This document shows, piece after piece, positions 7,735 to 49,607 of a stretch of DNA of 64,000 nt. A program made the position numbers and the translations under genes. The first letter of the stretch is position 1. The number at the start of each line of letters is the position of its first letter. The notes under the pieces were generated by a model, which had not been told where the DNA came from, made no database searches, and was given only the letters and a program-made list of their open reading frames with translations. Origin of the DNA: Rhizaria sp. SCN 62-66 (taxonomy: Eukaryota); assembly GCA_001724265.1 (NCBI GenBank), contig MEDY01000064.1:1-64000 (forward strand), given 5' to 3'.

Positions 7735-10700
7735 TCAGTTGGCGCGTGCGCTCCTGGCACCGCGGCCGCGTTTGGTCTCGCCGGCATCGGCGTCGGCCGC
7801 CTTGAGCGCCTCAGCCATCTGCTCGACCTCCGCGGCCGCGGCCTCCTGGCGGGACTCCACGGCGGCGTCAAGCCAGCCGCCCAGCGCCTTGCCGGGGCCC
7901 TCGGCACGGGCGGCCGCGGCGACGTCGGCGGCCAGCTCGTCCGCCGCGGCCGCGGCCACGGGCGCCGCCTTGAGCGCGCGCACCAGCAGCCCGCGGCTCA
8001 TGGCTGTGCGCGCGGCGGCGTCGACGCCCGCGGCGCGGCACGCGGCGGCCACGGCGGGCGTCGCGGCGGCCGCGGCCGCGGGGCCGCGCGCGCAAGGGCG
8101 GCCGCGACGCTGGGCGCGGTGGGCTGGAGGGCCTGCGCGGCGAGCGCGACCTCGGCAGCCAGCACGGCCAGCGGCGTCACGGCCGCGGCGGGCGTGCCCG
8201 CGAGGGCCAGGTTGTAGTGCGACTTGGCGAAGACGACGGCGCCGGCGGGGCGCGCGGGCAGCGTGTTGCGCACGGCGGGCGCCGCAGTGCGGTCCGCGAC
8301 CAGGTGCAGCAGCAGCTGCAGCGCCTGCGTCAGCCGCGCGGGCGCCTCGGCCGCGGCGCCGGCGTCGGCGTCCGAGACGGAGGCCGCGACGAGGGGCAGT
8401 ACGCTGTGCGCGAGCATTGCGGCGTGGTCCGACGCGCCCACGCCGCGCGGGTTGCTCCACAGCGCGGCCGCGGCGTCGGTGTCGGCGGCCGCAATGGAGT
8501 CGCTCGTGACGGCGCCCGCGGGCAGCGCCTGCGGGGACGCGTAGGCCGCGAAGAAGACCGTCAGCGCCTGCTTGCGCTTCGAGTCCCAGCTGTTGGCGCT
8601 GATGTTTGCAGTGTTATCCGAGCTGCTGCTGCTACTGTTGTGCATGAGCGCGAGGAGACGGCCGAGCAGACGCGCGGTGTCCGCGGCGGGCACGCGGTCG
8701 TAGAGTAGCGTCTTGCACAGCGCCTCGGTGGCCGCGAAAGACAGCTCCGCGGCCGCGGCCGGTGCGGCGACGGCGGCCAGCAGGAAGTCCGGCGCGAGCC
8801 TCAGGTCGCGCGGGGCGGCGGCGGCCGCGGCGGCCACGGCGGCCAGCGGGGGCGCGAAGGCCCACTCCTCGAGCAGGACAAGCGCGGCGCTGAACTCGGC
8901 CTCGCTGAGCCGGCCCTGTTGCTGCGGCTGGCCCTCGGTGTTGGCTTCGACCCCGTCCGCGGCGTCCAGGGGCGCGAGGCCGGTGAAGGCGAGCAGCACG
9001 TCGCCGACGGCGCGCACCGCGGCCGCGGCAACGGGCGCAACGGGCGAGCGCGCGGCGGCGACGAGCTCCGCGAGGTGCGTTTTGACTCGCGCGGCGTCGT
9101 TGTCGACGAGCACGTGCAGCCCCAGCGCCTGGACCGCGGCCGCCTCGACGGCCACGGAGCGGAAGCCCAGCGCGCCCGCCAGCACGGGCCGCACGGCCTG
9201 CGCCAGCAGCGTGCCCAGCGCGGGCTGCGTCGCCGCCGCGGCGCCGCGCGCGTGCGCGAAGACGTCCCGCGCGACGTCGAGCAGCCGCAGCCAGCACGCC
9301 TCCTCGAAGCCGCTCTGCTCGCGCAGCTCCGCCTGCGCCGCCGCGGCGGCCGCGGCGTCGCCCGCCTTGGCCGCGGCGGCGGCGCGCGCGGCCGTCTCGC
9401 CGCGGACCGCGCGCTCAGCTTCGAGCGCGGGGTGGCCCCCGGGCGCGAGCGTCGCCAACACCGACTCGACGACCTGCCCCAGGCACTCGACGATGGCCGA
9501 GGAGGAGGTCATGCGCTCCGCGAAGCGCGCGTGCGCCAGCGCGTGCGCCTGCGCGATGCGACCTGCGCGGCCCGAGCCCGCAGCGGCGCCCGCAGCCGCG
9601 GCAGCCTCGCGGCGGCGCGCGAGCGCGGCTTCCCAGGCGCGGTAGCCCGCATCGGCGGCGTCGACGGGCAGCACGCAGCGCAGCGCCGCGATGACGAGCG
9701 CGACCGTGTCCGCGGGCAGCGTGAGGTCTTCGAGCAAGTCCAGTAGGAAGTCGCGTGCGCGCGCCACGCCCGCGGCCTCCTGCGCGTCGGCGTGCGCCAT
9801 CCCGCGCAGCAGCTGGTGCAGCACGTAGCTGTCCGCGGCGGCGGCCGCCGCGGCGGCGGGGCCCGCGGCGGGGTCAGCGGCGCGGAGCCGCAGGTAGACC
9901 TCCGTGAGCGTGTCGCAGAAGGCGCGCGTGGAGGGCAAGAGGTCATCGGCCCAGGCGGCGTCGCGGTGGCGCGCGCACTCGGTCGCGCTGCGGTGGCCCA
10001 CGGCGCCGCGGCCGTGCGCCAGATCCAGCAGCACACGCCACAGCAGGGCGCGGCCGGGGGTCAGCGTGGCGGCCGCGCAGGGCAGCCCCAGCGCGGCGCG
10101 CTTGAGCAGGCGCGCGCAGGCAAGGTGCGCGACCACGGCCTCGGCGTCGGCGGCCGCGGCGACGGGGCCCAGCGCGTCAGCCAGCGCCGCCGCGTCGTCG
10201 TTGAGCTGCGACAGCCAGTCGGACAGCAGGTGCGTGGTCGCGGCCACCACGGACGCGTCGCGGTCTGACACGCCCGCACGTAGCACGGCCGCGAGCGCGG
10301 GCGCGCCAAGCGCGGGCAGCAGCAGCGGGAGCTGCGCACGCAGCGTGGCGAAGCAGAGCTTGCGTACAGCGGGAGCGACATCGCGCGCGTGGCGCACCAG
10401 CAGCGGCAGCGCGGCGGGGTCGCGGCCGACGACGGCGACCACGGCGCAGCGCACGTCGGCCGCGGCGTCGGCCTCGAGCAGCGCGACGAGGCGCGCCGCG
10501 ACGGGCTCGCTGTCCTTGAGGCGGCGCAGCGCCTTGACGGCGGCTGCGCGGACCTCGGCGGCCGCGTCGTCGGTGCGCACCAGCAGCGCGGCCTCGATGC
10601 CGTCGTAAACGTCGTCGTCAATCTCGGCGTCCTCGGGCAGCGCGTGCAGCGCGCGCCCGATGAGCTGGCACGCGTGCGCGCGCGTGGCCTTGTCCGAGGC

Positions 10701-11084
10701 GGCCGTCTTGGCGAGCAAGTGCTTGAAGCACCAGGAGCGAGCCTCGTTGGTCTTAGTCTCGTCGGGCGACGCGCGCGCGACGAAGGTTGACACCGCGGTT
10801 GCAATCGAGTCAAATGAGTCGCTCTTCTTGCCGTCAGCGGCCAGCACAAGCGCGAGCGCGTTCTAGAGCGCGGTCAGGAGCTCCTCGGGCGCCTCGGCGT
10901 AGAGGCGGCACAACACAGGCACGGCCTGTGTGTAGCCGAGGGGGTCGCGCTGGCACGCGGAGAGCGCGGAGACAACCTCAACCACCACGGAAGACGGGGT
11001 GAACTCCTCTGCGGCATCGGGAGCTGGCTCAGCTGCAGCAGCCGGCGGCTTCGCGGCAGCTCGGGCACGAGAAACGCGACTCAT
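7735..11084 (-). CDS. NCAPG: Condensin I subunit CAP-G (NCAPG/Ycg1), HEAT-repeat protein
   Basis: Track ORFs 10863..11084 and 7998..10847 share a frame and are separated only by TAG 10863-10865. CAP-G-like segments: ASDKATRAHACQLI, EIDDDVYDGIEAALLVRTDD..AEVRAAAVKALRRL, RDVAPAVRK, ATEALCKTLL, KQALTVFFAAYA. The C-terminus appears to continue in another frame after ~8090, ending in TGA 7735-7737. Confidence 0.8.
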
Positions 11085-11812
11085 GCCTGCTTAGGAATAG
11101 TCAGTTGGTTTGGGCAGTTGAAGGAACGGAAAACAAGGAAGCCAACGTCAGAACGGAAAAATACAATCAATTATTGCTTAAACATCTCTCTCAAATTTAC
11201 GATTCAAAAATCAAATGACGATTATACTCACTCAGCACAGAACCAACTTCGGCACAAAGATCGAGCCTACCCTCAACGGCTAGTAGTTGTTTCATGGTCA
11301 GTCAGTCACGGACCGAAAAACTGGTTGCAGTCTGGCGGACAGTCCCAAACAAAAACCCGATTATGCGAGCGCACCGGGCCAGCATTTCAACACGGGGAGC
11401 GCGGCAATGTCGCCAGGGCGGTCTTATGCTACGATGGGACGGTTCTACGAGGAGGATTGCACGCTATACAGTCTATTGGGGCTTTATGCGGGGCTTGTGT
11501 GGTGATTAAACTGCCCTTAACACAGAAGTCGGAAGGAGTCATGTCCATCACGTGGGCCCGCCATGATGAGCCTCTTTTGTGGGTGCAGAACCAAACAATA
11601 TTGCTGTGCGGAATTGCGTTTTTATTTCACATGCCGTAGCTTGCCTAAAATCGGATGTATTTTTTCACAGCGTCTCTGTTATGACGTCAATATCCCTCTG
11701 CTGACCCCCCTCCCACACTTTCGTCATCCCCCGGTTTCTGTCTTACCTTGCTCTCCGCGCGTCTTTTGCGCCTGCTTTTGCACTTGTTCTGAAAACAACA
11801 GGCACCACCTCG

Positions 11813-30412: not shown

Positions 30413-31164
30413 TACATCGTATGTGTTATGCATCAGGTCAAGCGCTGGGCGACGCGCGCGCGCATACTGCCTCCGATGTGAGCACAGTTTTATGCAGAAT
30501 GATGTGCATAACAAGTACATGTTATTCATACTTATAGACGCTGACTTGAGTCGTGCTGCAATTTTAGACTGGGCCGTTCAGAGTCACGGACACGCCCTGC
30601 TCTGACCGTGGTTGTTGACCACATATGAGTAACGTACGTATTAAACTCGCTCGTGCATGTGCATGTACTCTCGTCATGGAATAGCTTGTGATTAGCTTAC
30701 AAATAATTACGAGTACGAATATGTAGTAGTTTGGCCCCTGGCCCACTGGAATATACAGGACTCGTAACCTCATAAAGATTCAAAATTTAGAGCTTAACCT
30801 GTGCTATTTTATGGGTGTCTCGTTCTGATGCAGACTTATTTCATTCAAGGCGAGCTCCAGGTTTTCCACACAAAGATAAATGTGCTGGTTCACTGATCGT
30901 ATATATATTACATTATTGTACTCGTAATATGTTCTGTTTATACCGGTATTCTACCAAGCGCTTTGAAAAGTCTCTTTCTTATCGCAATGTCTACCTCTGT
31001 CTCATCATCTTTTCCTTCTTCCAACAGTCTCCATGTTTCGCAACTTGGGTTGTGCTTGGACAGTACTGCGATCGCTAAGTCATCGGCGGCACAGCACCCG
31101 ATGGTATCACAACCTCAACGCACGCTTGCCACCTCTGTCACCGCCGCTGCTGTTAACCCTAAAG

Positions 31165-31364
31165 TAGTATAGGTATAAAGCGGACTATGACTCACTTGGG
31201 TAAAATCTCACCATCCATGCTATTTACACTTTTTCTCAATTCATACTTTTCAACCCCCCCCAAAAACTCAGTGACTTCATATGTCAACCCTCACACACAT
31301 TGTGAGATTTACACATGGTGAGATTTTACCCAAGTGAGTCATAGTCCGCTTTATACCTATACTA
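31165..31364. mobile_element. Non-autonomous MITE, 200 bp, with perfect 50-bp terminal inverted repeats; probably hAT-type
   Basis: 31165-31214 (TAGTATAGGTATAAAGCGGACTATGACTCACTTGGGTAAAATCTCACCAT) is the exact reverse complement of 31315-31364. Flanks are CCCTAAAG (31157-31164) and CTCTAAAG (31365-31372), a 7/8 match as a putative 8-bp TSD. The interior is non-coding and AT-rich. Confidence 0.88.
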
Positions 31365-31832
31365 CTCTAAAGTCCGTGTCAAGATGGGCGCAGCCAAGCT
31401 CGTCGAGGAGCAAATCGGCGTGACGATGTTTTTCAGGCGATCGGTCTGGTCGTGACGTACGAGTCTATAATTTTCGGCTTCGTCAAGCTGGCGCACAGGG
31501 CTGACTCCAAGCTGGACACGATGGGGGGCAGGTTCGACGCCACGAACGCGCGCGTCGATATTAATATGACCACCCACAGCGCCCGCAAGGCAGACAGGAG
31601 CGACTAACCCAAGGACATTCATTTTTTGGAACCGACTGAGCAAACGCGTGTGAATGGATGGATTGCTTTTGCAAATGCTTTTGCCGAGCATTTGTGGTGT
31701 GATAATGTGAATACAGCCCGCTTTAAGAATGACCAAATGTATTCGAAGCTGTATGAAGATGGTTTGTCGATGACGACTATAACGAAACCTTACACACTTA
31801 TATTTGAACTTATGATAAACACCTAACGTTAC

Positions 31833-32280
31833 TTACATGTAATTACATGTGTACATGTACATGACAGCACTAGCAGAGTTCCTCCGATTAACAATGCGAG
31901 ATTTAACAGCAGCTATACAGATACGCTTTGAAACAGCTTGGAGAGTAATTTGAGTTGTTCCAAAACTGGAAGTTGCGCCAGCTGCAATAAGTCCCAGATT
32001 TAAAGACCAATGTGACTGCTGCTTCATAGTATGTATTACCTGGGGATAGGGTAACCCAGCCTTGGGATCAGTAAGAGCCTTAGTTACATAGTCAACAGGC
32101 TTGATAAACCGACAGTACATATCAGGAGATTGATTAAAGACAGCGGAGGTGCACTGGGGGCCACCTGTAGCACAGCTGGAAAGTGCAGGCATGTAATTCA
32201 AGAAACGATTCCACTCTTGGTTGAACTGGATAGAGACGTGCATCTGGCGAAGATTACGAAACGCGGAGCGTGAAGACGGA
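31833..32280 (-). pseudogene. Fragment of a virophage-like (Lavidaviridae-type) double jelly-roll major capsid protein gene
   Basis: Translation AFRNLRQMHVSIQFNQEWNRFLNY...VFNQSPDMYCRFIKP...LPYP...LIAAGATSSFGTTQITLQAVSKRICIAAVKS follows the order of central virophage MCP motifs as I recall them. Composition and codon usage are AT-richer than host genes. Not verified by search. Confidence 0.55.
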
Positions 32281-32699
32281 CAGTTAACTATCTTTACTAT
32301 ATTAATATCTTGTTTGTTTGATCGTGTTTTCGCTATTTGTGATGGCCTTTTGCTTCGTGTCTCAGGCAGACAACACGCGTACACACATGTACAGTACCTT
32401 CATTCCAGAATCAGTTCAATGGCCGTCGTCGTACGTACGAAATTGATCATGATGTTTCTCATACCCACGCAACTGTATTGTCCCAAATAATACGCATTTT
32501 AACATTTCTTATCATTATTGCTTCTTCCAAATCCATCCAGCAGCTCATTGATGCATTGACTAGAAGACTCGGTGAAGAAATAACATACTGTATCAGGTCT
32601 TTCGCTTTCCATTTCGACATGTGGTGGGGAATTTTGTCAATGTGATTCGACACAAATCAGTTGTATTGTTGACATTTCTCAACAAGGACAACTGAAAAC

Positions 32700-35600
32700 A
32701 TGTTGGTACGTCTACTGTGTTATTTTGATATCTTGTAAAACCTGCTTCTATCGCGTATGCCAGGAGCCGAGTTTCATCCCACCCCACGTCGCCTCATCCT
32801 CAGAAGATTCTTTCATTTCTCTCGCCGCTCACTTTCCCCACAGGGTGTCACGACAAAGGCTACCAGCCAGATTGACATCGGCAACGTTCTTACCGACTAT
32901 GTCAAACAAAACTACTCCCCTGAGGACGGTACGTGCCATTTCCACCTCACATTGTCTCTTTTGTCGATTTAACTTCTCACCGTGCATCGCCATGCATTGC
33001 ACACCGCTCACAGCCACATTTTCGTTTGCCTTATGTGTTTTCTCTGCCCATACTCCGTGACACACCACTACTCATCCACAGCCAAGTCCATCCAGTCTGG
33101 CTGCTCCGCTCTGAACTCGCAGCGCGCAGCCTTGCTCTCGGCGCTGGACAGCAACGCGTCTCTGGCCGACTACAAGGCCGCCTTCAACGCCTACATCGGC
33201 TCCTTCCACCTCGCCACGCGCCGCTTCCCCTTCGGCGACGACGCGCGCACGGGCTTTCTGGGTCACCGCCTGGGCAAGCCGCGCGCCGTGCACATCCACT
33301 TCACCTACGTCGACGCGCTGTGCCCCGCGAACCAAGCCGCGTCGACGGACCCGCGCTACGAACTCTGCGCGCAGGTCTTCAACTATGCCGCGCGGCTCTC
33401 GCGCGAGGCGCTGGCCGCCAAGGCGCGCCCTGAGGGCGGGCTTAATGACGCCTGCAAGCTCTTCCGCGAAGCGGCGGGCGCGTTCGACTTCCTGGCCCAC
33501 CCCAAGCTGGTGATGCCGCTGCCGGTGTCGATGGACATCACGCCGCCCGTCGCGGCCTTTTTCGCACAGCTCATGCTTGCGCAGGCGCAGGTGTGCGTCT
33601 TCGAGAAGGCCACGCAGAACGCCTTTTCGCCCGACCTCATCGCCAAGATCGCGGCGGACGCGCACGCCAAGTTCGCTGTGCTGCTCCAGCGGCTGGCCAA
33701 CGACTCGCTCGCCGTGTCCGCCACGGGCGGCATGTCCGTCGGCAAGTACTTCGCCGGATGCACCTTCAAGTGGGCCTCGAACGCGCAGCTGCAGGCAGGC
33801 CTCTACGCGGCGCAGGCCAGCTACTGGATGGCGCGCTCACGCTTCGAGGCGCGCAAGTGGGGCGACGAGATCGGTTACCTCCGCGTCGCGCTCTCACAGG
33901 TAGGCACACAGACACGCACATCTACGCGCAAGGGAGAGAACGTGAGGATCACGTGATATATTTCATATGTTGGTACTGATTTGTATGATTCATAGATCGA
34001 CTATGCTCGTCTTCGTTGTTTTTATCTTACCGCGACCGTTTCCTTTCCTTTCTCTTTCCCAATTGATCATTACGTTCCTCTCCCCTCGCCAGGTCGAGGC
34101 GACTCGCGCGTGCGACGGGGCAGTGCGCCTGGGCAACCCTGTTGCGGTGTCCCAGCGCGACGCACTGGCCACGTCGATCCGCGCGCGCCTGACTCAGGCC
34201 GAGCAGACCAACAGCACGGCTTACTTCGACGGGATCCCCGACTCGATGCCCTCGGTGCCCGCGCAATCGATGGCTACCATGGTCTCGTTCGACGAGGCCT
34301 GGGCCGCTGCCACGGGCTCGGCGACAGACGAGTTCCGCACGCTCGTCTCGCCCGAGGAGCGCGCCGCCGCTGCCGCAGTCGCCGCGGATCTGGGCAAGGC
34401 CGCCTCCGCCGCCGCCGCGGCCGCGGCCGCCAAGACTGCGGCCACGCGCGAGCGCCTCTCCGCGCTGTCGCTTCCGACCGCGCTGGACCTCTACGAGCGC
34501 GCCGCCGCCGCGCCCGCCGCTGCCGCCAGCGCCGCGGCCAAGCCCGAGGGGGCGGAGGTACCCGATGAGCTGTGGGCACGCGTGTGCGAATTCAAGACGC
34601 AGGGAGGTCTCGCGCAGCTGCGCCGCAGCGCCAAGGAGCTTGAGGTACGCAAGTGACACTGTCATTATCTTATATTGCGATGACTTGATCTACATGTTCA
34701 ATGTGATAATTCCTCCCTCATATCCAATGTCCACACTTTCACGATGTTCGACTCTTGCTTCTCTCTCTTTCTCTCCACATCTGCCCCGTAGGCCGCCTCG
34801 TCCGACGCGGCAGCGCGCGTGGCGTCGGCGAAGCAGGCGCTGGCGAACGAAGCCGCGGGCGACGCCGCGATGCGCGCCCAGTTCCAATCGCGCTGGCAAC
34901 GCTCTGCCTCGGCCCCGCTGAGCTCCTCGCTGACGGACATGCTCGCCGGCGTCGAGGGGCTGCTGGCCGACGCCGCGGGGGTCTCGCGCGCGGTCATTGC
35001 AGACCTCGCCGCGGCCGAACCCGCGCTGCAGGCGCTCGATGCCGACCGCATCACCATCGCGCGCGCGCTCCCGAGGCCCGCGCCCGTCGCGGCGGGCGGC
35101 GCGGCGGCTGGCAAGCCTGGGGCCGCGGCGGCCACGGCGGCGGCGGCGGCGCTGCGCAAGGCCCTTGACGCACTGACGGCGCTGCTGGCCGAGCGCGAAG
35201 CCCTGGCCAGAACTGCGCTCGCCGCGGCGGGCGTCGAGGGCGACGCGCACGCCGACGCGCACGGCGTCGCCGCGAAAGCGGGCACACCCACCGCTGCTGC
35301 TGGGGCCAGTGCGGCCGGGGCGAAGCTGGACGTGCTGGGCCGCATCCACGCAGGCGCCGAGGCGGGCAAGGGCCGCGAGACGGTCGCCGCGGACCTGGCC
35401 GCCGAGCTCGCCGCGCACACCGACAAGCTGGCCGCCGTGGAGCCCCGCGAGGCGGCGCTGCTGCAGGAAGTCGAGTCCGCCAACGCATCCTTCGTCGCGG
35501 CGACGACCGCGTTTAGCGCGAGCGGCGGCGGCGGCGGCGGCGCAGGCGGCGACCCCGCGCTGTCGGCGGCGCTGGGGGCGCTGTACGGCGCTTGCGACAC

Positions 35601-36548: not shown

Positions 36549-39500
36549 TTACCAGCGATTGCCGGGCCGTAGCAGTGTGCCACCGCCGCCGTAGGCGCCG
36601 CCCGCCTCCTCGTCGCGGCCCGTGCCCACATTCGCGCCGTACATGGACGCGCTGTTGCCGCCATAGCCACCACTGCTGCTGTAGCCGCCGTTGGCATATC
36701 CGCTATTGGCGTAGCCACTGTTGCTGCCGCCGTTGCCGTTGCTTCCGCTGGAGCCGCCGTGCAGCTGCCGCGACGAGAGCCCTCGCGTTAGGCTGCCCCC
36801 AAACGCGGCGCCGCTGCAGTACCCGCCGTACGAGCCGTAGCCACCCGCGCCGCCAGGGCTGGCACTGGCGGCCGCGGCCGAGGCGGGGCTGCTCGCGAAG
36901 AGGTTGTTGTTGTCCCCCATTGGCGCGAGCGTGAACGCGTTGTGCGTGTCGGCGAACACGGTGACCGTGAACGCGGCCTCTTCCCCGGGCGTGTAGGTCG
37001 CGGGACACACGGTCAGCAGCGTGCCTGCGGGCACAGGTTCCGAGAGCACGAGCGACACGTCCTGCGAGTGCGCGAACTTGGTCATCTTGCGCGGAATGCT
37101 GCCGTCAGCCGTGAGCCGCTGGCCGCCCGCCGTGGCCACAAAAAGCCCGATCGCGGGCAGCACGCGGCCCTGCACCTGGCCTTGCTGCTGCTGCTGCTGC
37201 TGCTGGGCGGGCAGCGGAGACTGCTCGAGCAGGAACTTGAGCCGGCAGGGCGCGCGCACGGCGACCACGAACTGCGGGTTGCTGGCGACGCGCTTGCCGC
37301 CGCCGCCGGCGGTGCCCTGCGCCTCGAGCCAGGCGCCCGAGACGCGGTCGAAGGCGGGCCACTGGCGGCGCTCCTGCTCGGCCAGGTCCGTGACCGTCAG
37401 CGCGGGGTCGTCGGAGTAGATCTTGACGGTGAACATGTTGTACTCGCGCGGGTCCAGCGTGGTGACGATGAGCGTGTACGGGTGGCCGCCGTCCGTGGGC
37501 TCGAGCCAGCCCTCAACCATGCGCGTCGCCGTCTGCGAGTACGTCAGCTCCATGCGCGGTGCGCCGGTGCGCAGGTACCCGACGCGTTCGCCGCCATTGT
37601 CGTACAGCGCACCGCCGATGTGGTGGTAGCTGCCGCCGGAGGCCGTGCGCGTCACGCGCTGAGTCAGACACACGCACACGCGGCACCGGCGCGTGACCTG
37701 GATGCCGTACTGCGGGTTGTCTTTGAAAGTGGGGTGGTTGGCGCAGCCGCCGGCCTTGGCGACGCCCCACTGGCCGTGCAGCACGAGCCCCGTGGTCCAG
37801 ATCGCGGGCGGGAACATGCGGCACACGAACATATGCTCAAAGTGCAGCACGACGTCGCGCATCGCCATCCAGAACACGCCGTCTTTGCGAGACTCGACGT
37901 TGAGCTGCTGCCGCAGCGCCGGCGTCCACAGCGCGCTGCCGTCGCTCCAGTCGCCGTCCCACTCGTCGGAGCCGTCGCCCCAGGGGTTGAACAGCTTGAC
38001 GAGCTGCGCGCCGCCGCCCGAGGGCAGCGCGACCTCCTGGAGGTCGAGCACGGCGTAGGCGTGGCCCTGCTGGATGCCGTGGCGTGACTCGTGGTGGGAG
38101 CCCATCGGCGTGCCGCACGCCAGCAGCGAGCCCGTGCGCAGCCAGTCAGCCAGCTGCGCGAAGAAGCCCGCCGCGTTGACCGGCGACGAGAGATTCTTGA
38201 GGTAGAAGGAGCTGGACACGCCACCCGTCAGGTGTTGTAGGCCTTCGCTGGCGAAGCCGCCTGCGAGCGCGTGGTAGCCTCCGTAGAGCTTGGCAAAGGC
38301 TTTTTCGAGCAGAATCGGGTACAGATCGTTGCCGGTGCGCACAAAGCAGGGCTTGACGGCGCGCCCGCTGCCCGGCTGCACGTAGAAGGGGATGTAGTCG
38401 TCCACCGTCACCAGCACGGGCTCCCCGTCCTGGAACAATCGCACGGTGTAGCAGCCGCTGGTGTTGGGCCGGCGCGTCACCACGGCCTGCAGCAGCCGCA
38501 GCGGCGAGGTCGAGACGGTGGCCAGCGATGCCAGCACCCAGCAGTCGCCCAGGTCGCCCTGCGCCATATCCTGCGCCGTCACGGGCGGGCTGAAGACGCG
38601 GCGGCCCGGGAACGCCTCGCCCGCGCGCCGCCACTGCACCACGAGCCCGGCGCCGCGCGCGGCCGACTCGACCTCGTGCTGCGCCGCCGCGCCCAGCGCG
38701 CGCGCGTCGGGCGGGAACGCCGGGTCCGTGAAGCGCGCGCCGCGCAGCGCGGCCAGCGCGTTGTCGGGCGGCGCCGGCACCACGCGCTCCGCCTCGGCCA
38801 GCTCGGACTCGGTTAGCAGCGGCCGGTTGTAGACCTGGAACGCGAGGTTGTCCACGCGCAGCTGCTCCGCCGAGAGCGGGATGTAGCTGCCCGCGCCGCC
38901 GGGCGCTGCTGCGGCGTCAGCGAGGGCCTGTGGCGCGGTACCAGGGCCCGCGACACCGCCCGCCGCGACGGCAATGCTGCGGAGGCGCGCGCGGACGGAA
39001 GCCGTGGCGGCAGGGTCCGCGGACGGCAGCGGACCGTGGTCGCGCGTGGCCGGCAGCAGCAGCGCGGGCGGCGGCCCCACGCACAGCACGCGCTGCAGAC
39101 AGGGCAGCGAGACGGCGTGCGTGCTGTGGTGGCGCAGGCGGCAGTACGCGCACACCACGGCGTTGCCGCACGTCGCGCACACGAACGCTTCCTGCCACAA
39201 CCGCGGCAGCGAGTCGGCACTGCCTTCATTTGCATTCGCACCATTGGCAACAGCGTTCGCGCCCATGGCGGGCGACGAAATAAGGCCCTCCTGGAAGAGC
39301 CGGACCGCGTGCGCGCGCGTGCAGCCGCCGCCGTCGGTCACCGCGCGACAGGCAAACACTTCGTCGTTGCGCTTGGCCTCCTCCTGCGCGTGCGCCATCT
39401 CCAGTGCGGCCCGCTGCGCGCGCAGACGCTGCTGGCGCTGCCGCTCGGCCTCCTGCTGCTGCGCCAGCGCTTGCGCGCGGGCCTCGCGCTCGGCGCGCGC

Positions 39501-42500
39501 GAGCTCCTCCTGCTGCCGCTGCAGACGCAGCCGTGCCGCGGCCTCTTCCTCAGCGCGCTCGCGCTGCAGCTGCTGCTCGCGTAGCAGCTGCTGCTCGCGG
39601 TCACGAGCGCGTTGCAGCTGCTGTTGCTGCTGACGCTCGCGCTGCAGCTGGATCTGGCGCCTGTGTTCGCTCTCCTGACGTGCAAACGCCTCCATGCGGG
39701 CGCGCGCCTGGTCTTGACGCGCGCGCTCCTGCGCAGCCTTCGCCTCAGCTTCAGCACGGCGTTCTGCCGCGACAGCTGCCTCAACGGCCGCAAGCGCGCG
39801 CCGCTGCTTCTCGACGGCCTGCTTGCGCTCAGCTTCCTCCGCGCGCGCCTGCTCCTCAGCCAGGGCGCGCATGCGCCCTTCGGCTTCGTCGACGAGCGCG
39901 CGGGCGGCCTGGTCGCGCAGCGCGCGGCGGCGGCGCTCGCCGTGAAGCTCGGCCTCGTCGCGAACGGCGCGCTGCACGTCCCGCTGCGCCTCGGCCGCGG
40001 CGTGCGCCTTGTAGAGCGCGGCCAGGCGCGCTGCGAAAAGCGGGTCCTGTGCGAGGCGCAGCCGCTCCGCCTGCGAGATAGAGTCGACGTCGGGCACGGC
40101 GCTGCGCAGCACCTGCACCAGCGCGGCGTTCTGCAGCGCGAGCCGCGCGTGGTGCGCATGCACGACCTCGACGGCGACCTGCGCGTGCACGGCGGCGGCT
40201 GTCTGCGCCAGGCGCGCGTGCGTGGCGTCGAGCAGGTGCAGCAGCGCGAAGGCCTCGCGGCGCGACAGCCAGCGGCCGCGGAAGCGCACCTCGAGCAGCG
40301 CGGGCATCGCCGTGCGCGACAGGCGCGCCGCCGCGCGGGCCGAGATGGGCACGCGCACCGCCGCGGGGCGCTGCGTCGGCGACGGAGCCGGCACGGACGT
40401 TACTTGCTGCTGTTGCTGCGGCTGTTGCTCTTGCGGATGCTGCTGCTGCAGATGGGCGGCCATGTTGCTGCCAGGGGCAGCAGTGCCAGCAGGCGCAGGC
40501 GCTGCACCTACAGAGGCCGCGTTCACAGGAAGCGGCGCGGTGAGAAGCATGGTGCCCTTGGGCATCGGCGGCACAAGTCCTCCACTCGCACTCGCACTAG
40601 CCACCGCACTGGCGCTGCTGCTGCTGTTGAGCGTAGGGCCGTGTGAGGCCGATGCGGGCGCAGGGGCAGGCACGGAGAGCGGGATTTGCCCTTGCGCCTG
40701 TTGTGCGCTGTCCTGCACAAAGCTAACGCCCGTAAGCGCGTTCGCGTTACTACGGCTGCGATTACGGTTCCCACGCCTGTTATTGAAGCTGTAGGCCCAC
40801 ATCGGCGACGAGGCAGGCGCGTCGGAGCCGGCGCCCGTGCGCCCGGCGCCGCCGAGCGGGCCTGCACCACGCCACTGCCGGCTGCCGCGCGTCCTGCCCG
40901 CGCCCGCGGCGGCGGTTGTCGCGGCGTCGGCGAGCGCGAGGTCGGCCTGCTGCTCGCGCGAGCGGTCGCAGCAGACGGCCGTGAAGAGCGGCGGGATCGC
41001 GGCCAGCAGCTCGTCGCGCGCGCGCGCCACGGCGTCCGCGTCGAGCAGGGCCGCGTCGGCGAGCGAGCGGATCGAGACCTCCTCGACGCTAGCATCGGCT
41101 CTACTGATGTCCACCGCTGCGCCGGCCGCTGCTGAGCCAGAACTAGAGCCCGCGCCGCCGCCCCACGCGTCGGCAGCAAAGTCTGAGTTGGCGAGGCGGA
41201 GGCGGAAGCGCGCCTCGGTGCGGACCGCGGCCTCCGCGCGCGAGAGCAGGAGCTCGGTCTGGCGCTGAGTCAGCTGCGGCGAGTGCAGCCAGCGCGACAG
41301 CGCCGTCGTCTCGTCACCCTCCAGCACCGGCGCGCGCGTCGGCGGCGGGCGCGTTACTGCAGCAGTCGCCGCAGTTTTTGCAGCGGCGCTAGCGTCGGCG
41401 CTTGCTGTGGGCTGGTTGAGCGTTGATGCGACTGCAGTCATTGCACCAGCGGCGTTGTCGCCGTCCTTGCTGACGTCCGCGTTGTTCGCATTGCCGACGG
41501 TGTTGTCGTTGGTTTGCGGGATCGCGGAGGGCACAGTCGCAAGCATACCGAGTCCGACGTCGTGGGATCCGTTGCTGCCATAGTAGCCGTCGCTGCCGTC
41601 GTCGTGGTAGTCGTCGTGGTAGTCGTCGTCGTCGGTGTCGTCGTGATCGTAGTCGTCCTTACGCTCGTCCCGGCCGCCGCCGTAGTCGTCGTCGCTACCT
41701 CCACCGTTGCCCTCACCGTCGTCGGCGCCGTAGTCGTAGCCGCCGTAGAGCTCTGCGGCGCCCACGTCGCTCCACTGGACGCCACCCACGCCCGCAGTGA
41801 CACCCACGCTCGCGCGCGGACCCACTCCGCCGCGAGCAGCGCCGCCGTGAGCAGCGCCATCGTGAGAGACGCCACCACCGCTGGAGAGCGTGCTCGCGTG
41901 GCCGTCGCCCGCCGGGGCGCCGGGCGTGCTGGGGCGGCCGATGCCGCTCAGCCCATCGAGAGCGCCTGTGTAACCGCTGGGCAGCGCGGGGGACGCGGGG
42001 CTCGGCGGCACCAGGGATCCGGCGCGAGAGCTGCCGCTGCTGCCAACGGACCTGTTCCCATTCCCGATACTGCTGCCATTCGGCGGAGAGGAGCCCACCG
42101 CGTGCTCGCCGCCTCCAGTCGCCGCGATCGGCGCCCGCAGCGGCACTGGCACCTCCTCGGGCAGCGCGGCTGCTGCAGCGACGGTGGCGGCGGCTGCGGG
42201 CGCGGAGGCGGCCAGCGGGTCCGCGGAGGGCCGTCGCGACTGCGAGCGCGAGACGATGCGGGACGAGGGCCCTACGGAGCGGGGGCCGCGCGCGCCACCG
42301 CCGCCACCAGCAGCGGCAGCAGCAGCGGCGTCGCTGGCGCTGTTAGCGCCGAAGGTGGCCCCGGGGGCGGAGATGAGGACGCCCGTGCCCACCGCGGGCG
42401 CACCGCGGTCGTCGCCGTCGTCATCGCCATCGTTGTCGTTGCTGTGGGCCTCAGGGTGGCCGAGAGCGGCGAGCGACGGAGGCCGGGGCACAAAGCTGCC

Positions 42501-44967
42501 GCCAGCGCCAGTACCGTGACTATACGCGCCGGGGACCTGCAGCAACGACGCCGTCGCAGTCGCCGAGGCAGGCAGCGGCGGCGGCGGCGGAGGCGGCGGC
42601 TGCGGGGCCCGCACGGGGCTGCGGCCGGACGCCGACGGACCGCGCGCATTAGCACTGTGGGTGCTGTTGCTCTCATCGCTGTTGGTGCTGGCGGAGGGCA
42701 GGGCAGGCAGCGGCGCAAGGAACGTCGGCGCGCGGCTGCGGGGCGCGGCGGGAGTGAAGTTGGCGTTGGGATCGTTGTAATAAGTCACGTGAACAGACGA
42801 TGAGTCGGTCACAAGGCCCACCGAGTAGCCCAGGCCCTGGTCTTCCCCTTGGTTCTGCTCTTGCTCCCGCCCATAACCAGGTCCAATACCAGCGACAACG
42901 CCCTGAGAAAGCGGTATATGCGGCGGCGGCGGCGGCGGTGGCGGCTGCGGCGGCGCTAACGGCCCGGGACCGGCGCCATTGCCGGGCGCAGAGGCGTGCG
43001 CACTGGCCGGGAGCGCGAGGGTCGAGCCGCCGAGCACAAACCCCGTCGCGCCATCGCCCGCGCCGACCGCAGTCACGACGGGCTCAGGCACGGGGACCGC
43101 GATGGAGCGTGCGATGGGCAAATGTGCGAGCAATGCGCGAACCTGCGCGGCCCGCAGCGCCTCTGCAAACTCTGGCGAGTCGGGTCCGCCGAAGAAAGTG
43201 ACAGCCGCGGCGAGCTCGGAGTTGACGCTGTTGCGCCACATGAGCAGCGAGGTGGCGAAGTAGAGCAACGCGACCGAGGACACGCAGAGCCCCGCGGTGG
43301 GCGGCGAGATGAAGTACGCGGCCACCACGCCCCAGATGTAAACGATCGCGGTGAGCGCGAGCGGGAGCAGCACGCGGCCGTTGCGCAGCTGCAGCGGCGA
43401 AACGCGACCCGTGTTGGCGACGTACTCAAACACGGGCAGCAGCGCCTTAGAGAAGAAGAGGCCCGTGACGCGCAGCGAGTCGCGGCCCCACATGAGCGCC
43501 TCGCTAGCGCCGCCCTTGCCGCCCGCCGCGGCAGAGTCGGCGCCCGCCTGCGCAGCGGAGCCGGAGACGGCGGCCGAGGACGGCGTGAGCGCGAGCAGCG
43601 AGCTGTCGGTGTACTGGTCGCCGAAGGTGTAGAGCATGAGGATCAGGAGCGCCGTGAAGAGCACGCCCCAGGAGATGCTAAAGGCGATGAAACCCGAGCT
43701 GCCGGATACGCTGGCGACGACTGCAAAGCCCAGAAGCAGCAGCAGCAGCGGCGCAACCGCGCGCAGCGGCGTGAGCGACGGGAAGCGCGTGCGCAGCCAG
43801 GGCCAGAGGCGGCGCACGGCCAGCGGCGTCGCCGACAGCAGCGTGACGGCAAACAGCAGCCCAACGCCGATGATTACGGGCTTCACGAGCACCGCAACGG
43901 CGATGAGCGCGGCCATGACTGCAAGGTAAGCGAGCACGAATGCGCCCGTGGTGGTGTGCGTGACGCGGCCCTGGTCCAGCCGCAGCTTGCGCGTGGCGAA
44001 GACGAGCGCGACGACAACGACGTACCCGGCGGCAACGAGCACGGGCCAGATCGCCGGCGCGCGGTGCGGCGTGAGAAACCACACAAACAACGACGCGGCA
44101 ATAACGACAACGTTGAGCGCGACGGCCGTGGCAATCTCTGCGGACCACGCGCTGGCGTAGTACCAGCCCTCCATGGCGAAGAGCGCCGAGGGCAGCGCGA
44201 GCAGAAGCGCGGCCAGCAGCCAGCCGGGCCACGCGTGAGCGTCCCCGAGCACGATCGGCAGCGCGGACGTGACCGAGAGCGCGAGCGCGGCAAGCAGCGC
44301 GGCGCAGACAAGGTAGTCGCGCCTCGGGAGCCGGCCGCGCAGCAGCGAGCGCGCGAAGGGCGCCAGCGGCGGCGAGCGGTGCGCCGCGGGCGCGAGCAGC
44401 TTGTACCCATTGTCGACAATGAGGTTGTACGCGGCGTAGTCCAGCAGAACCACGGGCGGCACGAAGAGACAGGCCGTAAGCACGATAATCGAGGTCGTGA
44501 GCGCGTAGAATACGGCGCCTGCAGCGATGGCGGCGCCGTACCACAGCGCGGCCAGCACGGCGACGCGAAGCGACAGCCCCGCGGGGGAGTTGTCGTACAG
44601 GCGCTTGAGCGCGAAGCCCGAGAGAAAGAGCGCGACGAAGAAGAGCGCGGCGACGCCGGCCATGGATTGCGAATGCGAGTCGAGCACGACGATCGGGGGC
44701 GCGGACGAGTAGTGCGCGGCCACGGTGCTGGCGAGCATGCCCGCAGTGAGTAGCAGCAGCGAGATGACGTCGACGTGCCGCCGCAGGAATGCGGTCGCCT
44801 GGGCGCCGCAGGAGGGCTGCTGTGCGCCGCCGCCTTGCTCGCGCTGCCGCCGCTGCTGCTGCTGGTACTCGCACTCGAGCTGCTGCTGCTGGTGCTCCTG
44901 CTCCCGATGCAGCGAGTGCCGGTGCTGCCCACCGGGGCCGCCGGTCGCCACAGCCGCGGCGCCACCA

Positions 44968-44999
<32 letters not shown>

Positions 45000-47243
45000 A
45001 GGTTGATATTGCTATTGGCTGCCAGGCGCAAGAGCGGGCGAGCCAGGAGCGCTGCCGCCGCCGCTCTGCGGATTAATGCCGTAGTAGCCGCTGCCGTAGC
45101 CGCTGGCGCCGTGGTTATACAGCGGGCTCGACAGCTCGTGCTCGCTGACCGGGCTCGCGTCAGCCTCGGAGCCGTTGGCGCTTGCGGAAACAGCGCCCCC
45201 GCCGATGTTGAGGTTCAGGTAGGAGCTCGAGGTCAGCAGCGGCGGCGGGGCGCCGGCGGGCCGCGCGCGCGGGCGCGGGGGCAGCTTCGGCGGCGACTGC
45301 GACAGCGGCAGCGGCGGCGGAGGTAAGGGGCCGTTGCCCGAGTTTCCGCTACCACCGCGGCTGCCACGACCGAGGCCGAGCGTTGCGCTGTTCACGTCGG
45401 TCGAGGCGGAGGTTATGGGTGACAGGCAGTCGATACCGCCACCGATTTGTTGATGCTGTGCGTGTGGGCCCTGCGCCTGTGTGTGCGACTGTGGCGTGGC
45501 CCAATGTCCCGCACCCGCGCCCGCAGCAGCGCCGCCGGTGCGGTCAGCGCCGGTTGAGTGCATCGCAACGACAACAGGTCCTTGTCCGCCAGTGGCGCCG
45601 GCGTTAGCCCAGACACCACCCGCAGAAGTACTACTATTGTTGTTGGGCGCTGTGTCGTCGATATCGTTCGTGTCGTTGTTGTTGAAGGCCTTGGCAAACA
45701 CAATGGCGTCCAAGCTCTCGAGCCCCAGCAAACGGCCCTCGTCCTCATCTTCGGCGTCGCGGCCACGCTCGCTGTCTCCGTCGTGTTGGTCTTGAGGACT
45801 CACTCCACTGCCGAAGCCAGCGCCCGTAGGCCGCGCACCGGGCTCCTGCTGTCCTTGTTGCATGACGCGACCACCAGCAGCACCAGCGCCGCCGCTGGCA
45901 GCAGCGTCTGCCTCAGATCCCTGAGGGTGTGCGAGCTGGTTGCTGTTGTTGCGGTCGCGTTCGCCGAGCTTCGTCGCGCGGCGGTGCGAAGCGACGCGGC
46001 GCACGCGGTCACCGCGAGCCTCGCGCCAGGCCTGCTGCGCGCCGGCAAGCGAGGGCGAGGTCAGGATCGCGCGCACGGTCTCGGCCGCGGTGCGGGGCGG
46101 GAAGCGCGTGCGTACGAGTGAGATGGAAAACACGGCTGCGAGCAGCGCGTACGTGAAGGCCTGGCCGACGAAGTAGTACTCGTCGCCGAACACCACAAGC
46201 AGCACGCGGCACGCGGCGAGCGCGGAGACGGCAACGGGCACGGAGGTGATTTTGCCGGCGTAGCCGCTGAAGAGCACGCACATGTCGAGCACCATCACGG
46301 CGGCAGCGGTGACATACCCGGCGTTGAAGGTCGCCAAGTGCTCCGTGTCATCCGCGTCGCCCGCGGGGTCGGAGCCGTCGGTGGCGTTGCGCGCAAGCGC
46401 GGCGTGCACGACGAGCGCGTACACCCACAGCAGCACGAGCGACATGAGCCAGGACCCGACGGCCTTGGCCAGGCGCGCGGTGCGGCGGCGGTCCGCGGCG
46501 GCTGCGCGGCGAGCCGCCAGCGCGGGCGCGGCCGCGGGGACGGGGTCCGCGCCGCCCACCAGCGCAGGCGGTAGCGCGGAGCCGTAGGGCGCGGCGAGCG
46601 AGGCCGCGGCGGTGGCGGAGGCGAGGTCGGGCCAGCACGAAGTGAGCAGCGCGGGCAGCGTGCGGTACACTCCCGGGTAGTCTTTGTAGTCGTAGGCGTT
46701 GAAGTTGAGCAGGATGGACACGGAGTACGCCACAGGAAGCATGTTAATTGTGAGAAAGATGACGCTTAGACTGGTGAAGGTGCGCGTCTGCGTGATGAAC
46801 GCGCTGAGGATCTGGAAGGCCACGAGCAGCGCGCCGGCCAGAGTCAGCAAAACGCGTGGGAACAGCGAGAGCGTGTAGCCGTTGAAGTGCCAGTGTGACC
46901 AGGCAAACATAGCGAGCAGCACCGCCGTGCCAATCATGAGCAGCGAGAAGCCGTACATGGACGGGAAGTCGCTGTTGGCGAGCGCGGTGCCGCCCCAGGC
47001 CCACAGCAGCGCGAAGGGCGAAGCCAGCGTGAGCCAGACAGCGATCGAGAACCAGGGCGCCCAGCGCGCGAACGCGGCATCGGACACGCCCAGAAAGACA
47101 AGCCAGCGCGCAGCCATACGGATGTTGCCGCGGATGCGTGAGAGCACCATTTGCGCGGCGATGGTCAGCAGCAGGGTGGGGAGCCCGAACTAGAGCAGGT
47201 GCAGCCCCGCCTCTGCAGACCAAAACTCGCGCACGTGCACCAT
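36549..47243 (-). CDS. Giant multi-transmembrane calpain (TML/DEK1-like), ~3,564 aa, read through two in-frame TAGs
   Basis: One frame from ATG 47243 to TAA 36549, interrupted only by TAG 47190-47192 and TAG 45012-45014. Many hydrophobic TM helices in two blocks, a coiled coil and a CxxC...CxxC...HH zinc finger. CysPc domain with QGDLGDCW (Cys ~38541), GHAY (His ~38061) and NPWG (Asn ~37986). Two C2L-like domains (GQWGVAKAGGC...NPQY; GAW...TAGG...NPQF). Confidence 0.88.
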
Positions 47244-49607
47244 TGCGGCAAGCCGCGCGGCCGGAGCGGCGCCAGGCAGACAGAAAAAAGGAGAGAAGGC
47301 GTGGTGTGGTGGCAACGCGTGAAGAAAGGTCCGGAGAAAGCGGTTGGGCGGACCGAAATAGGAACCAACCTGTGGAAGGTCAGACGGGAGAGAGTCAAAA
47401 GGAAATGCGGTTCAAGTAGTTAATGAGCAGACCAAACAAAATGAATTTCTGTTTACACGTAAAGAAGTAATACTTAATATCAAGACACTTATCAAAACCT
47501 CTTTCTACGACGAAGCACATGCTTACTGCTTCGAATACCATGCTGCGTCTCCACAAAGTTGAAGTGGTCCGATTTTAAAGCTGACCTTAAGCACGACGGA
47601 CCGATTTGTGGTTGAGACGTTTAGTATCAATTTAGGCAGACCATATCAATGATACTGACGACAAAACTTTGAAAAACAATCGTTGACAACTTGATTTATC
47701 TATGAATTATGCTATTAGTGTCTTTGCATTCTATGCGCTTCATCAGTATCATTCCAAAAGAAAGCTTGCGTGAAACGGGAGTTGCAGATAGTAGCTTGTT
47801 TTACTATAGAGAATATGTATCAGCGATTCTAACGAGAAACGAAGTAAAGAGATAACAGGAACAAACAACAAATCGTTTCTAAGAAACGGAGGAGAAGAAA
47901 ATCATCAACTAGCCTACAAGAGGCCGACATCTAACATAACAGATCAAACAAACAAGATAGTATAACAAACATAGATACAGAGACCATATCAGAAACGTAA
48001 CATCAGCACAGACAAGATAAGAAGAGATACAATGAGCGATACAAGAGAACCTAAAAGGCACAGACACTAATGCCAACACGAACGTACAAGCACACCAAAA
48101 GACGCGCGACAAAGAACGAGAGAGCTGGCGAGAGCGTAGGTACGGAGGCACGATGACACACAGTGCAGCGACAGAACTTGAGCAAAGCTCAGTGCAAGAA
48201 TCTACGAGCGACAGAGGCCCTAAGGCCTCACACCGTGCTAAGTCGCAGCGTCGCTCGCTCGCTCGCTCGCTCGCGCGCTCGTCTGTTTAAACGTGCACCA
48301 TCAGAGTGGTTATCGCCACGAACGGAGACAAGTGATCAGAACACTCGACGTACGTTGTGTGTGGTTGATGCCGCAACGATCGCTGTAGCTAGTGCAGCGA
48401 CATGAGTCGTTTCCCTCTCCCTCTTGCATCCACACTCTCTCGCCACATAAAGTACAGGTGCGTTCGAACATACACACGCAGGCACGTACGACAGCATAAG
48501 AGCAGCAGCAGAACAGACACGGTCGTACGCAGTCTAAGGATGATAAATGAATGAATGAAATATATATCATGGAATTCAAATCACGTCACGAATAGTAGAA
48601 GTAAGTAACGACACGAGCACAGTGCCACCTGTACAGGGCTGTACAAGAGCAGAACAAAGCAGGCTAGGCCGGGGGTAAGCGAGAGAGAAGTGAACATGAG
48701 GCGAAACGACATAACACGCGAGTCAAGTAAGAAGACTTGAGGTCGTTGCATTGCATTGCGTTCTGCGGGCAGCATTGCATACGAACGTATCAGCACGATC
48801 AATGGACACATAGAGCAGATAATAGGTGATGCTCTCGCGCACTGTTGTCGGCGACGGCTGACCGCAGAAGACTCGCGCAGTCGCTCTCATTCTTGGCCTC
48901 GCTATTGCAGACTCACACGCACAAATTAAGCACGTCTGAGTGTAGGACTGTGAGAGGCACAGTTGTGGAGAGCTTGTTGTTCCATTGTTCCACCGAGAGA
49001 TGATGACAAGTTACATTAAAAAGAAAGACAAACCGACAAGCAGACTACAGGGGGGAAGAGGTCAAAAATATTTTAAAGAGAAACGAAAAAAGAGAAGAAA
49101 ACAAGAGTGGCATGAGAAAAAATTTTCGAGAAGACAGTAGCGGATCACAGAAACGGCCACTGTCGTCCCGTGCTACTGTACTTAGAGAGAGGGAGACCGA
49201 CGGGCACGAGCTACCTTCGCACCAACGACGTGGCTTCGTTGCTGCGATAGAGTTGATGCGTGTGTCTCTTGTTGTGTCGTACTTAAAGTGACTCTCGTAA
49301 GGTCACTTCGGGAAAAAAAACGTGCTTTAAAATTTGCTAGACACCAAGTCGTGAGTGGGATTCACGACGTCAACAATGATTTCAGAGTAATGTTACGTAC
49401 TACTAGGCATTCACGCGACTACTCTCAACGGGCAGCTCTGCTCTATACACAGCTCTTCTCTCCCTTAGCGTCGCTTGCGAGGCAGCGTCACATAGTCGCA
49501 GTGACAGCAGATTCGAAGAGCAGGAGCGGGAAACAGAGCAGAGCTGAGCGCCGCTAACTCGAACCCGCTTGGCGCTTCAGGTGCGGCGTCTGCGGATGCG
49601 TGGGGGC

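Follow-up and report, generated by a model that had tools for sequence, protein, structure and literature searches.

A virophage capsid gene fragment in a protist chromosome points to the host of a virophage lineage that appears to tolerate in-frame UAG

Introduction

Does a short, AT-richer open frame in a protist chromosome record past exposure to a virophage, and what can it tell of the virus that left it? Virophages depend on a giant virus, and host ribosomes translate their genes. The window analyzed here, a stretch of 64,000 nucleotides from Rhizaria sp. SCN 62-66 (contig MEDY01000064.1, in an assembly of 714 contigs and 34.9 Mb), contains such a frame, which an initial annotation read as a decayed insertion of a virophage major capsid protein (MCP) gene. 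Endogenous virophages and Polinton-like viruses (PLVs) are well known in protists, and in Cafeteria, whole endogenous elements of the mavirus type are able to reactivate (PMC10214139, in part). Degraded elements have been described as well (bioRxiv 10.64898/2026.10.13.758929), in a text whose available part mentions neither genetic code nor stop codons, resolvases or protelomerases. Because virophage fossils in protists are already known, the fragment alone would be a modest finding; the new part is the code, with a virophage lineage that appears to share that of a UAG-reading protist.

Results

Identity and extent of the capsid fragment

The minus-strand frame is open over 31836-32399 and encodes 188 aa (Table 1). 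By tblastn, its MCP-homologous part covers 31896-32255 and at most 31860-32264, for a length of 120-135 codons, beside the ~130 aa first estimated; the first 47 and last 20 codons of the frame are without clear MCP homology. The non-host composition noted from the letters is borne out by a GC of 0.45 and a GC3 of 0.40, versus 0.68 and 0.92 in the adjoining host BRO1 exon. All four motifs quoted in the initial annotation lie inside the frame, the Sputnik counterparts given with them are present in the alignment to PDB 3j26, and the fragment does run into TACATG repeats. Set against the relative P0004 (617 aa), its core matches approximately residues 250-368 (about 245-381 at maximal coverage), so the window holds about one fifth of the gene and falls short of a full-length MCP with about 550-620 aa and both jelly-rolls. 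Strands mapped from a model of P0004 place the fragment at the end of the first jelly-roll, the linker and the start of the second, a placement in which it would comprise no complete jelly-roll domain.

Table 1. Coordinates of features in the window and of the palindrome on metagenomic contigs
Feature	Position	Strand	Basis or detail
Host condensin subunit Cnd3	8001..11090	-	Pfam Cnd3; in-frame TAG 10863-10865
MITE-like element, 55-nt inverted arms	31160..31369		Related copies on at least 8 other contigs
Dispersed repeat	31620..31829		88-94% identical to stretches of C477 and C480
Stop-to-stop frame holding the MCP fragment	31833..32399	-	TGA before frame; TAA at 31833-31835
Four TACATG copies past the 3′ break of the fragment	31834..31863		Starts at 31834, 31844, 31852, 31858
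Virophage MCP fragment (core)	31896..32255	-	tblastn, hhalign, Pfam, strands from P0004 model
Host BRO1/ALIX gene exon	32973..33953	+	Pfam BRO1, E 4e-38
Host calpain-family gene	36552..47411	-	In-frame TAG 45012-45014 (poly-Gln run) and 47190-47192
24-bp palindrome	L067:799-822; L062:2720-2743; L066:3447-3470		Downstream of MCP

The proposed virophage-like identity is upheld by sequence and profile comparisons. Three full-length MCPs (P0004, P0024 and P0026) match the fragment at 52-59% identity by tblastn (E 2e-43 to 4e-37), and hhalign against a 19-sequence MCP alignment from which the fragment was excluded returns a probability of 99.2% and E 7e-20. Alone, the fragment matches Pfam MCP_V20_C weakly and below the cut-off of 27 bits (E 0.033, 14 bits) and has no match among PDB sequences; a word-indexed protein search for longer relatives (0 of 508 candidates) and a scan of the viral contig collection found none. 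A longer copy in the same genome, on contig C681, is 50% identical to the fragment over 131 aa and when searched directly also had no PDB match. An exhaustive phmmer search with this copy gave 19 matches, one of which is the copy itself (P0003) and two of which (P0013 and P0021) were dropped as unrelated repeat proteins by Pfam; 15 of the remaining 16 fall in Sputnik MCP Pfam families at E < 0.01, with P0007 and P0008 exceeding the PF21915 cut-off. The 19-sequence family profile has Sputnik V20 (3j26, E 2e-39) and the mavirus MCP (6g45, E 1e-14) as its only significant PDB sequence matches.

The double jelly-roll fold was tested on the full-length relative P0004 rather than on the fragment. 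Its AlphaFold2 model (617 aa, mean pLDDT 69.8) has 3j26 as top Foldseek match (E 2.7e-26, TM 0.59/0.71), followed by mavirus 6g43-6g45 and then PBCV-1, so the structural check suggested at the outset likewise leads to Sputnik. A Polinton-like or giant virus is a very improbable donor: the double jelly-roll is common to all of these viruses, but the Pfam and PDB sequence matches lead to virophages, the top five fold matches are Sputnik or mavirus, ahead of PBCV-1, and the penton of the lineage described below is of the Sputnik V18/19 type. In a FastTree tree of 25 MCPs (midpoint root, without reference virophages, and with the short pieces L063a, L064 and L067 left out), the fragment falls with support 1.0 inside one clade with P0004, P0022, P0024, P0026, L062, L063, L065, L066 and C681. 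Together, these comparisons confirm that 31896-32255 is an internal piece of a Sputnik-type virophage MCP gene.

Linkage to host DNA

The fragment sits in intergenic DNA upstream of BRO1. Ten of 13 listed sequencing runs contain the stretch or part of it; they are bioreactor, wastewater or microbial fuel cell metagenomes or are unlabelled, and no RNA run is listed among them. We compared the locus with four runs from studies other than its possible source (X2, X4, X5 and X9). In X2, a single 1,500-nt contig spans 31749-33248 with no differences and joins the fragment to BRO1; one X4 contig covers 32106-32851 with no differences, X5 has pieces over 31794-31944 (no differences) and 31921-32217, and X9, which is probably DNA, covers only 31456-31600. 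The fragment is physically linked to the host BRO1 gene, and the X2 contig substantiates the earlier claim that a virophage MCP fragment is integrated in a protist chromosome.

An assembly chimera of a co-occurring free virophage and a host contig would suit a genome this fragmentary, and related viral contigs do occur in the same runs, but three other studies have contigs that extend over one or both junctions with no differences, and the free-standing metagenomic relatives match the fragment in short pieces at no more than 65-81% identity; we regard this explanation as largely refuted and extremely improbable. Further contigs in X4 and X5 share 37 nt with the fragment and then run on. Read by eye, the loose end in X5 looks like an intact MCP continuation, and in X4 the word depth, which is no measure of copy number, is 64.9 for the 37-nt-match contig versus 3.8 for the host locus.

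No inverted repeats bracket the fragment, and the dispersed repeat at 31620-31829 has no match in the viral contigs. The MITE-like element, whose left end reads TTAA then CCCT, a piggyBac-like end, was rejected as the terminal repeat of the fragment since it is present on one side only; TTAA near both junctions is too common to count as a target duplication. A 78-codon plus-strand frame at 31371-31607 has a host-like coding score, ends in TAA, faces the MCP fragment and has no Pfam match. When six viral or virus-bearing loci were compared with the window by tblastx, clustered matches appeared only at 31.5-32.5 kb, and outside this cluster were many low-complexity matches from the host part of L060 and six stray matches from L062 and L066; these six aside, no other viral genes were seen within the 64-kb window, and MCP, penton, ATPase and protease are not present in one element at the locus. 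Mavirus-type provirophages (EMALEs) are whole elements with terminal inverted repeats and an integrase, and the locus has no such element.

Decay of the fragment

Eleven of 47 columns that are invariant in eight relatives are changed in the fragment, including a proline invariant in all 19 sequences of alignment A2. In a leave-one-out control, which is biased in that most relatives have a close partner, 0-2 of 47-49 columns are changed in seven relatives and 6 of 53 in P0022. Pairwise dN from the fragment to its relatives is 0.34-0.41, versus 0.29-0.43 between other distant members. Because the control is biased and dN is barely higher, part of the long branch of the fragment may be viral, and the firm evidence for loss of function is the truncation. 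The decay proposed in the initial annotation is therefore clear from truncation and only moderately evident from substitutions.

With no complete jelly-roll in the modeled placement, no capsomer should be possible from the fragment, and we infer that the locus has no function. Co-option by the host, as an expressed 136-aa protein from the first Met or as RNA acting as capsid decoy or silencing template, is improbable. All 120 homologous codons are open, with an in-frame Met near the start, and the identical sequence occurs in runs of several studies; against this, a frame would stay open by chance with P 0.55-0.85 after 15-60 random substitutions, so the open frame is no sign of selection, conserved residues are lost and no whole domain is present.

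Virophage genes elsewhere in the genome

A search of the assembly for intact copies, also proposed at the outset, was made with MCP, penton, ATPase and resolvase and found no intact copy of the lineage, yielding instead broken pieces of all four genes. Short-read assembly can collapse multi-copy whole elements, and the absence of an intact copy is thus not proven. The same-lineage pieces lie on four other contigs (C681, C240, C561 and C292), each truncated, frameshifted or deleted. The C681 MCP is 66% identical to P0004, misses the first 183 residues, is broken near its C-terminus and adjoins an S74-type tail that is joined to a ubiquitin repeat gene of the host; C240 holds a frameshifted ATPase piece (64-70% identity), C561 a 5′-truncated penton (83%) and C292 a resolvase piece (74%) that bears a deletion. 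A second MCP lineage, 22-23% identical to P0004, is found at contig ends on C344 (L060:7173-9999) and C649 (L061:4902-7634).

Several further features accompany these pieces. On C681, a multi-copy host repeat ORF ending in ubiquitin (L003:1-3596) contains two in-frame TAGs and continues, without a change of frame, into a peptidase S74 chaperone tail of virophage type, and a perfect 26-bp palindrome (L003:5398-5423) lies just upstream of the truncated MCP. C344 has a phospholipase A2-like gene (Pfam PF08398, E 4e-9) upstream of the second-lineage MCP, and C480 and C477 (L006 and L007) have a repeated kinase-like cassette beside the repeat that they share with the window.

The donor virophage lineage

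Six of 34 pattern matches in a metagenome collection encode relatives 65-97% identical to P0004. One of these contigs, L067, packs six viral genes or gene ends into a compact block of 5.5 kb without host DNA, in which the MCP 3′ end faces a penton, an ATPase, a protease, a ResT/TelK-like resolvase and the end of an S74-like gene. The resolvase match is above the cut-off (E 2e-16). Below the Pfam cut-offs are the penton (PF21507, E 2.8e-5, Sputnik V18/19-type), a weak P-loop ATPase (AAA_22, E 0.021) and the C48-like cysteine protease of the lineage (E 0.0013). Virophage genomes are defined by four core genes, namely MCP, penton, ATPase and protease (PMC6905037, in part), and L067 has all four, each below its Pfam cut-off.

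In three of the six contigs a perfect 24-bp palindrome lies downstream of MCP within a longer imperfect inverted repeat, and is a candidate resolvase target or hairpin-telomere site; the host genome also contains pieces of the palindrome-bearing repeat, at 93-100% identity. No tRNA gene was found in any of the six contigs. One of the six metagenomic MCPs (L063) has a frameshift and a TAG in the L064 MCP replaces a conserved Trp, so some of these relatives may be decaying insertions.

The host genetic code

We surveyed about 474 kb of the 34.9-Mb host assembly. Among 53 apparent gene ends, 29 are TGA, 21 TAA and 3 TAG, and in-frame stops with coding DNA on both sides comprise 8 TAG, 1 TGA and 0 TAA; a looser setting gives 13 TAG, 2 TGA and 1 TAA, including some wrong-frame or pseudogene sites. 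The 189 candidates from a first host-frame filter were antisense shadow frames and were discarded. TAG is very rare in the host, with 13 candidate sites versus 3,694 CAG in 125,686 training codons. Two genes of the window have in-frame TAGs (Table 1), and that of Cnd3 lies inside the stretch aligned to PDB 5oqr, nine residues from the alignment start. The calpain-family frame comprises 3,620 codons; it has numerous hydrophobic, membrane-like stretches, carries a calpain catalytic domain and domain III repeats at its C-terminus, and presumably resembles membrane-anchored DEK1-type calpains.

A pattern search recovered, as one of four matches, a host tRNA gene that has a CTA anticodon and a run of T behind it (L111:1489-1561, minus strand; C84 about 76008-76080); searches by family and with two Gln tRNAs had no CTA tRNA among the 63 of 506 candidates scored. 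In-frame UAG, depletion of UAG at gene ends and a CUA tRNA, as in nuclear codes with reassigned UAG, thus all occur in the surveyed DNA, and UAG is probably decoded as sense by the CUA-anticodon tRNA. The evidence on the residue is divided. The tRNA is 64% identical to host tRNA-Glu(CTC) versus 45% to tRNA-Gln (24 isoacceptor types seen), and acidic contexts and a Glu at the second penton TAG in Sputnik and C561 also favor Glu; Gln is favored by poly-Gln contexts and by the ubiquitin paralogs, 10 of 10 of which have CAG. Paralog columns at TAG have Gln in 4 of 14 cases and Glu in 2 of 14, the context score changes between Gln and Glu with the setting used, and Glu is also favored by the kinase-like cassette of C480 and C477, in which one copy has TAG and the other, by eye, GAG. 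We consider Glu an evenly balanced call, and Gln nearly so. The rarity of UAG and the Glu-like CUA tRNA may indicate a young or undescribed nuclear code.

In-frame TAG in virophage genes

The six metagenomic contigs, which are not independent of each other, contain 9 TAG, 0 TAA and 0 TGA in 3,938 codons of their core genes (here MCP, penton, ATPase, protease and resolvase), where random nonsense mutation would give TAG in 54-59% of cases (P 0.007-0.009). Addition of two genes upstream of MCP raises this to 18 TAG, 0 TAA and 0 TGA in 4,945 codons (P 2e-5), a count biased by the fact that the ends of the two upstream frames are set by TAA or TGA. The homologues P0041 and P0042 align across the TAGs of the two upstream genes, one TAG near the resolvase end could be a real stop, and the first penton TAG is the exact end point of three distinct database proteins of 66 aa, which occur on 8, 5 and 2 contigs. 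Judged from these genes, the virophage family seems to read TAG as an amino acid, as its host does.

The fragment in the window has 10 Gln codons and no TAG, and TAGs in the genome's own viral copies, which may be mutations, occupy Glu/Asp, Trp, Gln and hydrophobic columns. The TAG of the C681 MCP was rejected as proof of a shared Gln code since the near-identical P0022 has Glu there, and Gln at TAG columns in P0004, P0026, P0029, P0038 and P0042 was not counted because these proteins may be automatic TAG-as-Gln translations.

The fossil could instead come from a standard-code lineage, with the contigs being decaying endogenous copies in the host or its kin and their TAGs chance mutations that are tolerated or unexpressed. 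This would fit TAG columns that a single mutation often separates from Glu, Trp or Lys codons, the single MCP frameshift, and non-coding parts of the viral contigs that are 93-100% identical to host-genome repeats. It is nevertheless unlikely, given the absence of TAA and TGA, expected at 41-46%, from the internal stops (9 in core genes, 18 in total), the same penton TAG position in three sequence variants, and the compact six-gene block of L067 without host DNA.

Discussion

The locus is very probably a non-functional virophage MCP fossil and, as such, a host tag for a UAG-tolerant virophage lineage. Past exposure to giant viruses, as first proposed, would follow from the dependence of virophages on them. 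In the explanation we favor, about 360-400 bp from the middle of a virophage MCP gene was joined into host intergenic DNA upstream of BRO1, most likely by illegitimate end-joining of viral DNA or through erosion of a larger insertion; the lack of terminal repeats and integrase at the locus and the single broken genes spread over five contigs point to imprecise entry rather than an integrase. The fragment ties to this host a lineage with MCP, penton, packaging ATPase, cysteine protease, ResT/TelK-like resolvase and S74-type fibre tail, which appears to tolerate in-frame UAG because the host that translates its genes probably decodes UAG with a CUA-anticodon tRNA.

The fossil thus gives a host to a virophage clade and offers a match in the genetic code of virus and host that can be tested. 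With standard gene callers the viral genes end at TAG, which gives 66-aa pentons and split MCPs, so such viruses will be missed or called broken; from the code, hosts can be predicted and the giant virus looked for. A more ambitious and rather doubtful reading is a living virophage lineage that uses the UAG=Glu code of its host (a tRNA-Glu-derived CUA tRNA, with UAA and UGA as stops) and whose linear genome would end in hairpins made by a protelomerase on the conserved 24-bp palindrome; if true, UAG adoption would lock the virophage to its host and demand a giant virus that copes with the code.

In the accessible literature that was searched, the only recoding found in virophages was the virus-borne ochre-anticodon (TTA) tRNA of clade 22 (PMC6905037, in part), and no virophage with a protelomerase was found by title; the MCP lists in the PMC6905037 supplement may already include these contigs. 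Reassignment of UAG only is to Gln in Iotanema, Hartmannula and Trochilia and to Leu in Rhizaria exLh and some phyllopharyngeans, and UAG=Glu is combined with UAA=Lys in the ciliate PL0344 (PMC10553269 and PMC11687900, both in part). The host resembles these nuclear codes in having UAG as sense and a CUA tRNA, from the closest relative of which the residue was called, and differs from them in keeping UAA and UGA as stops and using UAG very rarely. If the residue is Glu, UAG=Glu with UAA and UGA stops would be absent from the combinations in the available parts of PMC10553269 and PMC11687900.

Among known virophages, Sputnik is closest: its MCP V20 (3j26; PF21915 and PF22031) is the best profile and fold match, with the same motifs across the domain boundary, the lineage penton matches PF21507, and the mavirus MCP is the second-best match of the family. 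Unlike Sputnik, however, the lineage has in-frame TAG and a ResT/TelK-like resolvase, and V20 has only 16% structural identity to P0004. As with the mavirus-like elements of Cafeteria, virophage DNA is found in the genome of a heterotrophic protist, in several insertions and from more than one lineage, whereas here the lineage is represented by single broken genes and the locus has no terminal repeats or integrase. As in clade 22, virophages are linked to stop-codon reassignment in a host, but where that clade has a virus-borne TTA tRNA, the lineage described here combines in-frame TAG in viral genes with a CTA tRNA of the host.
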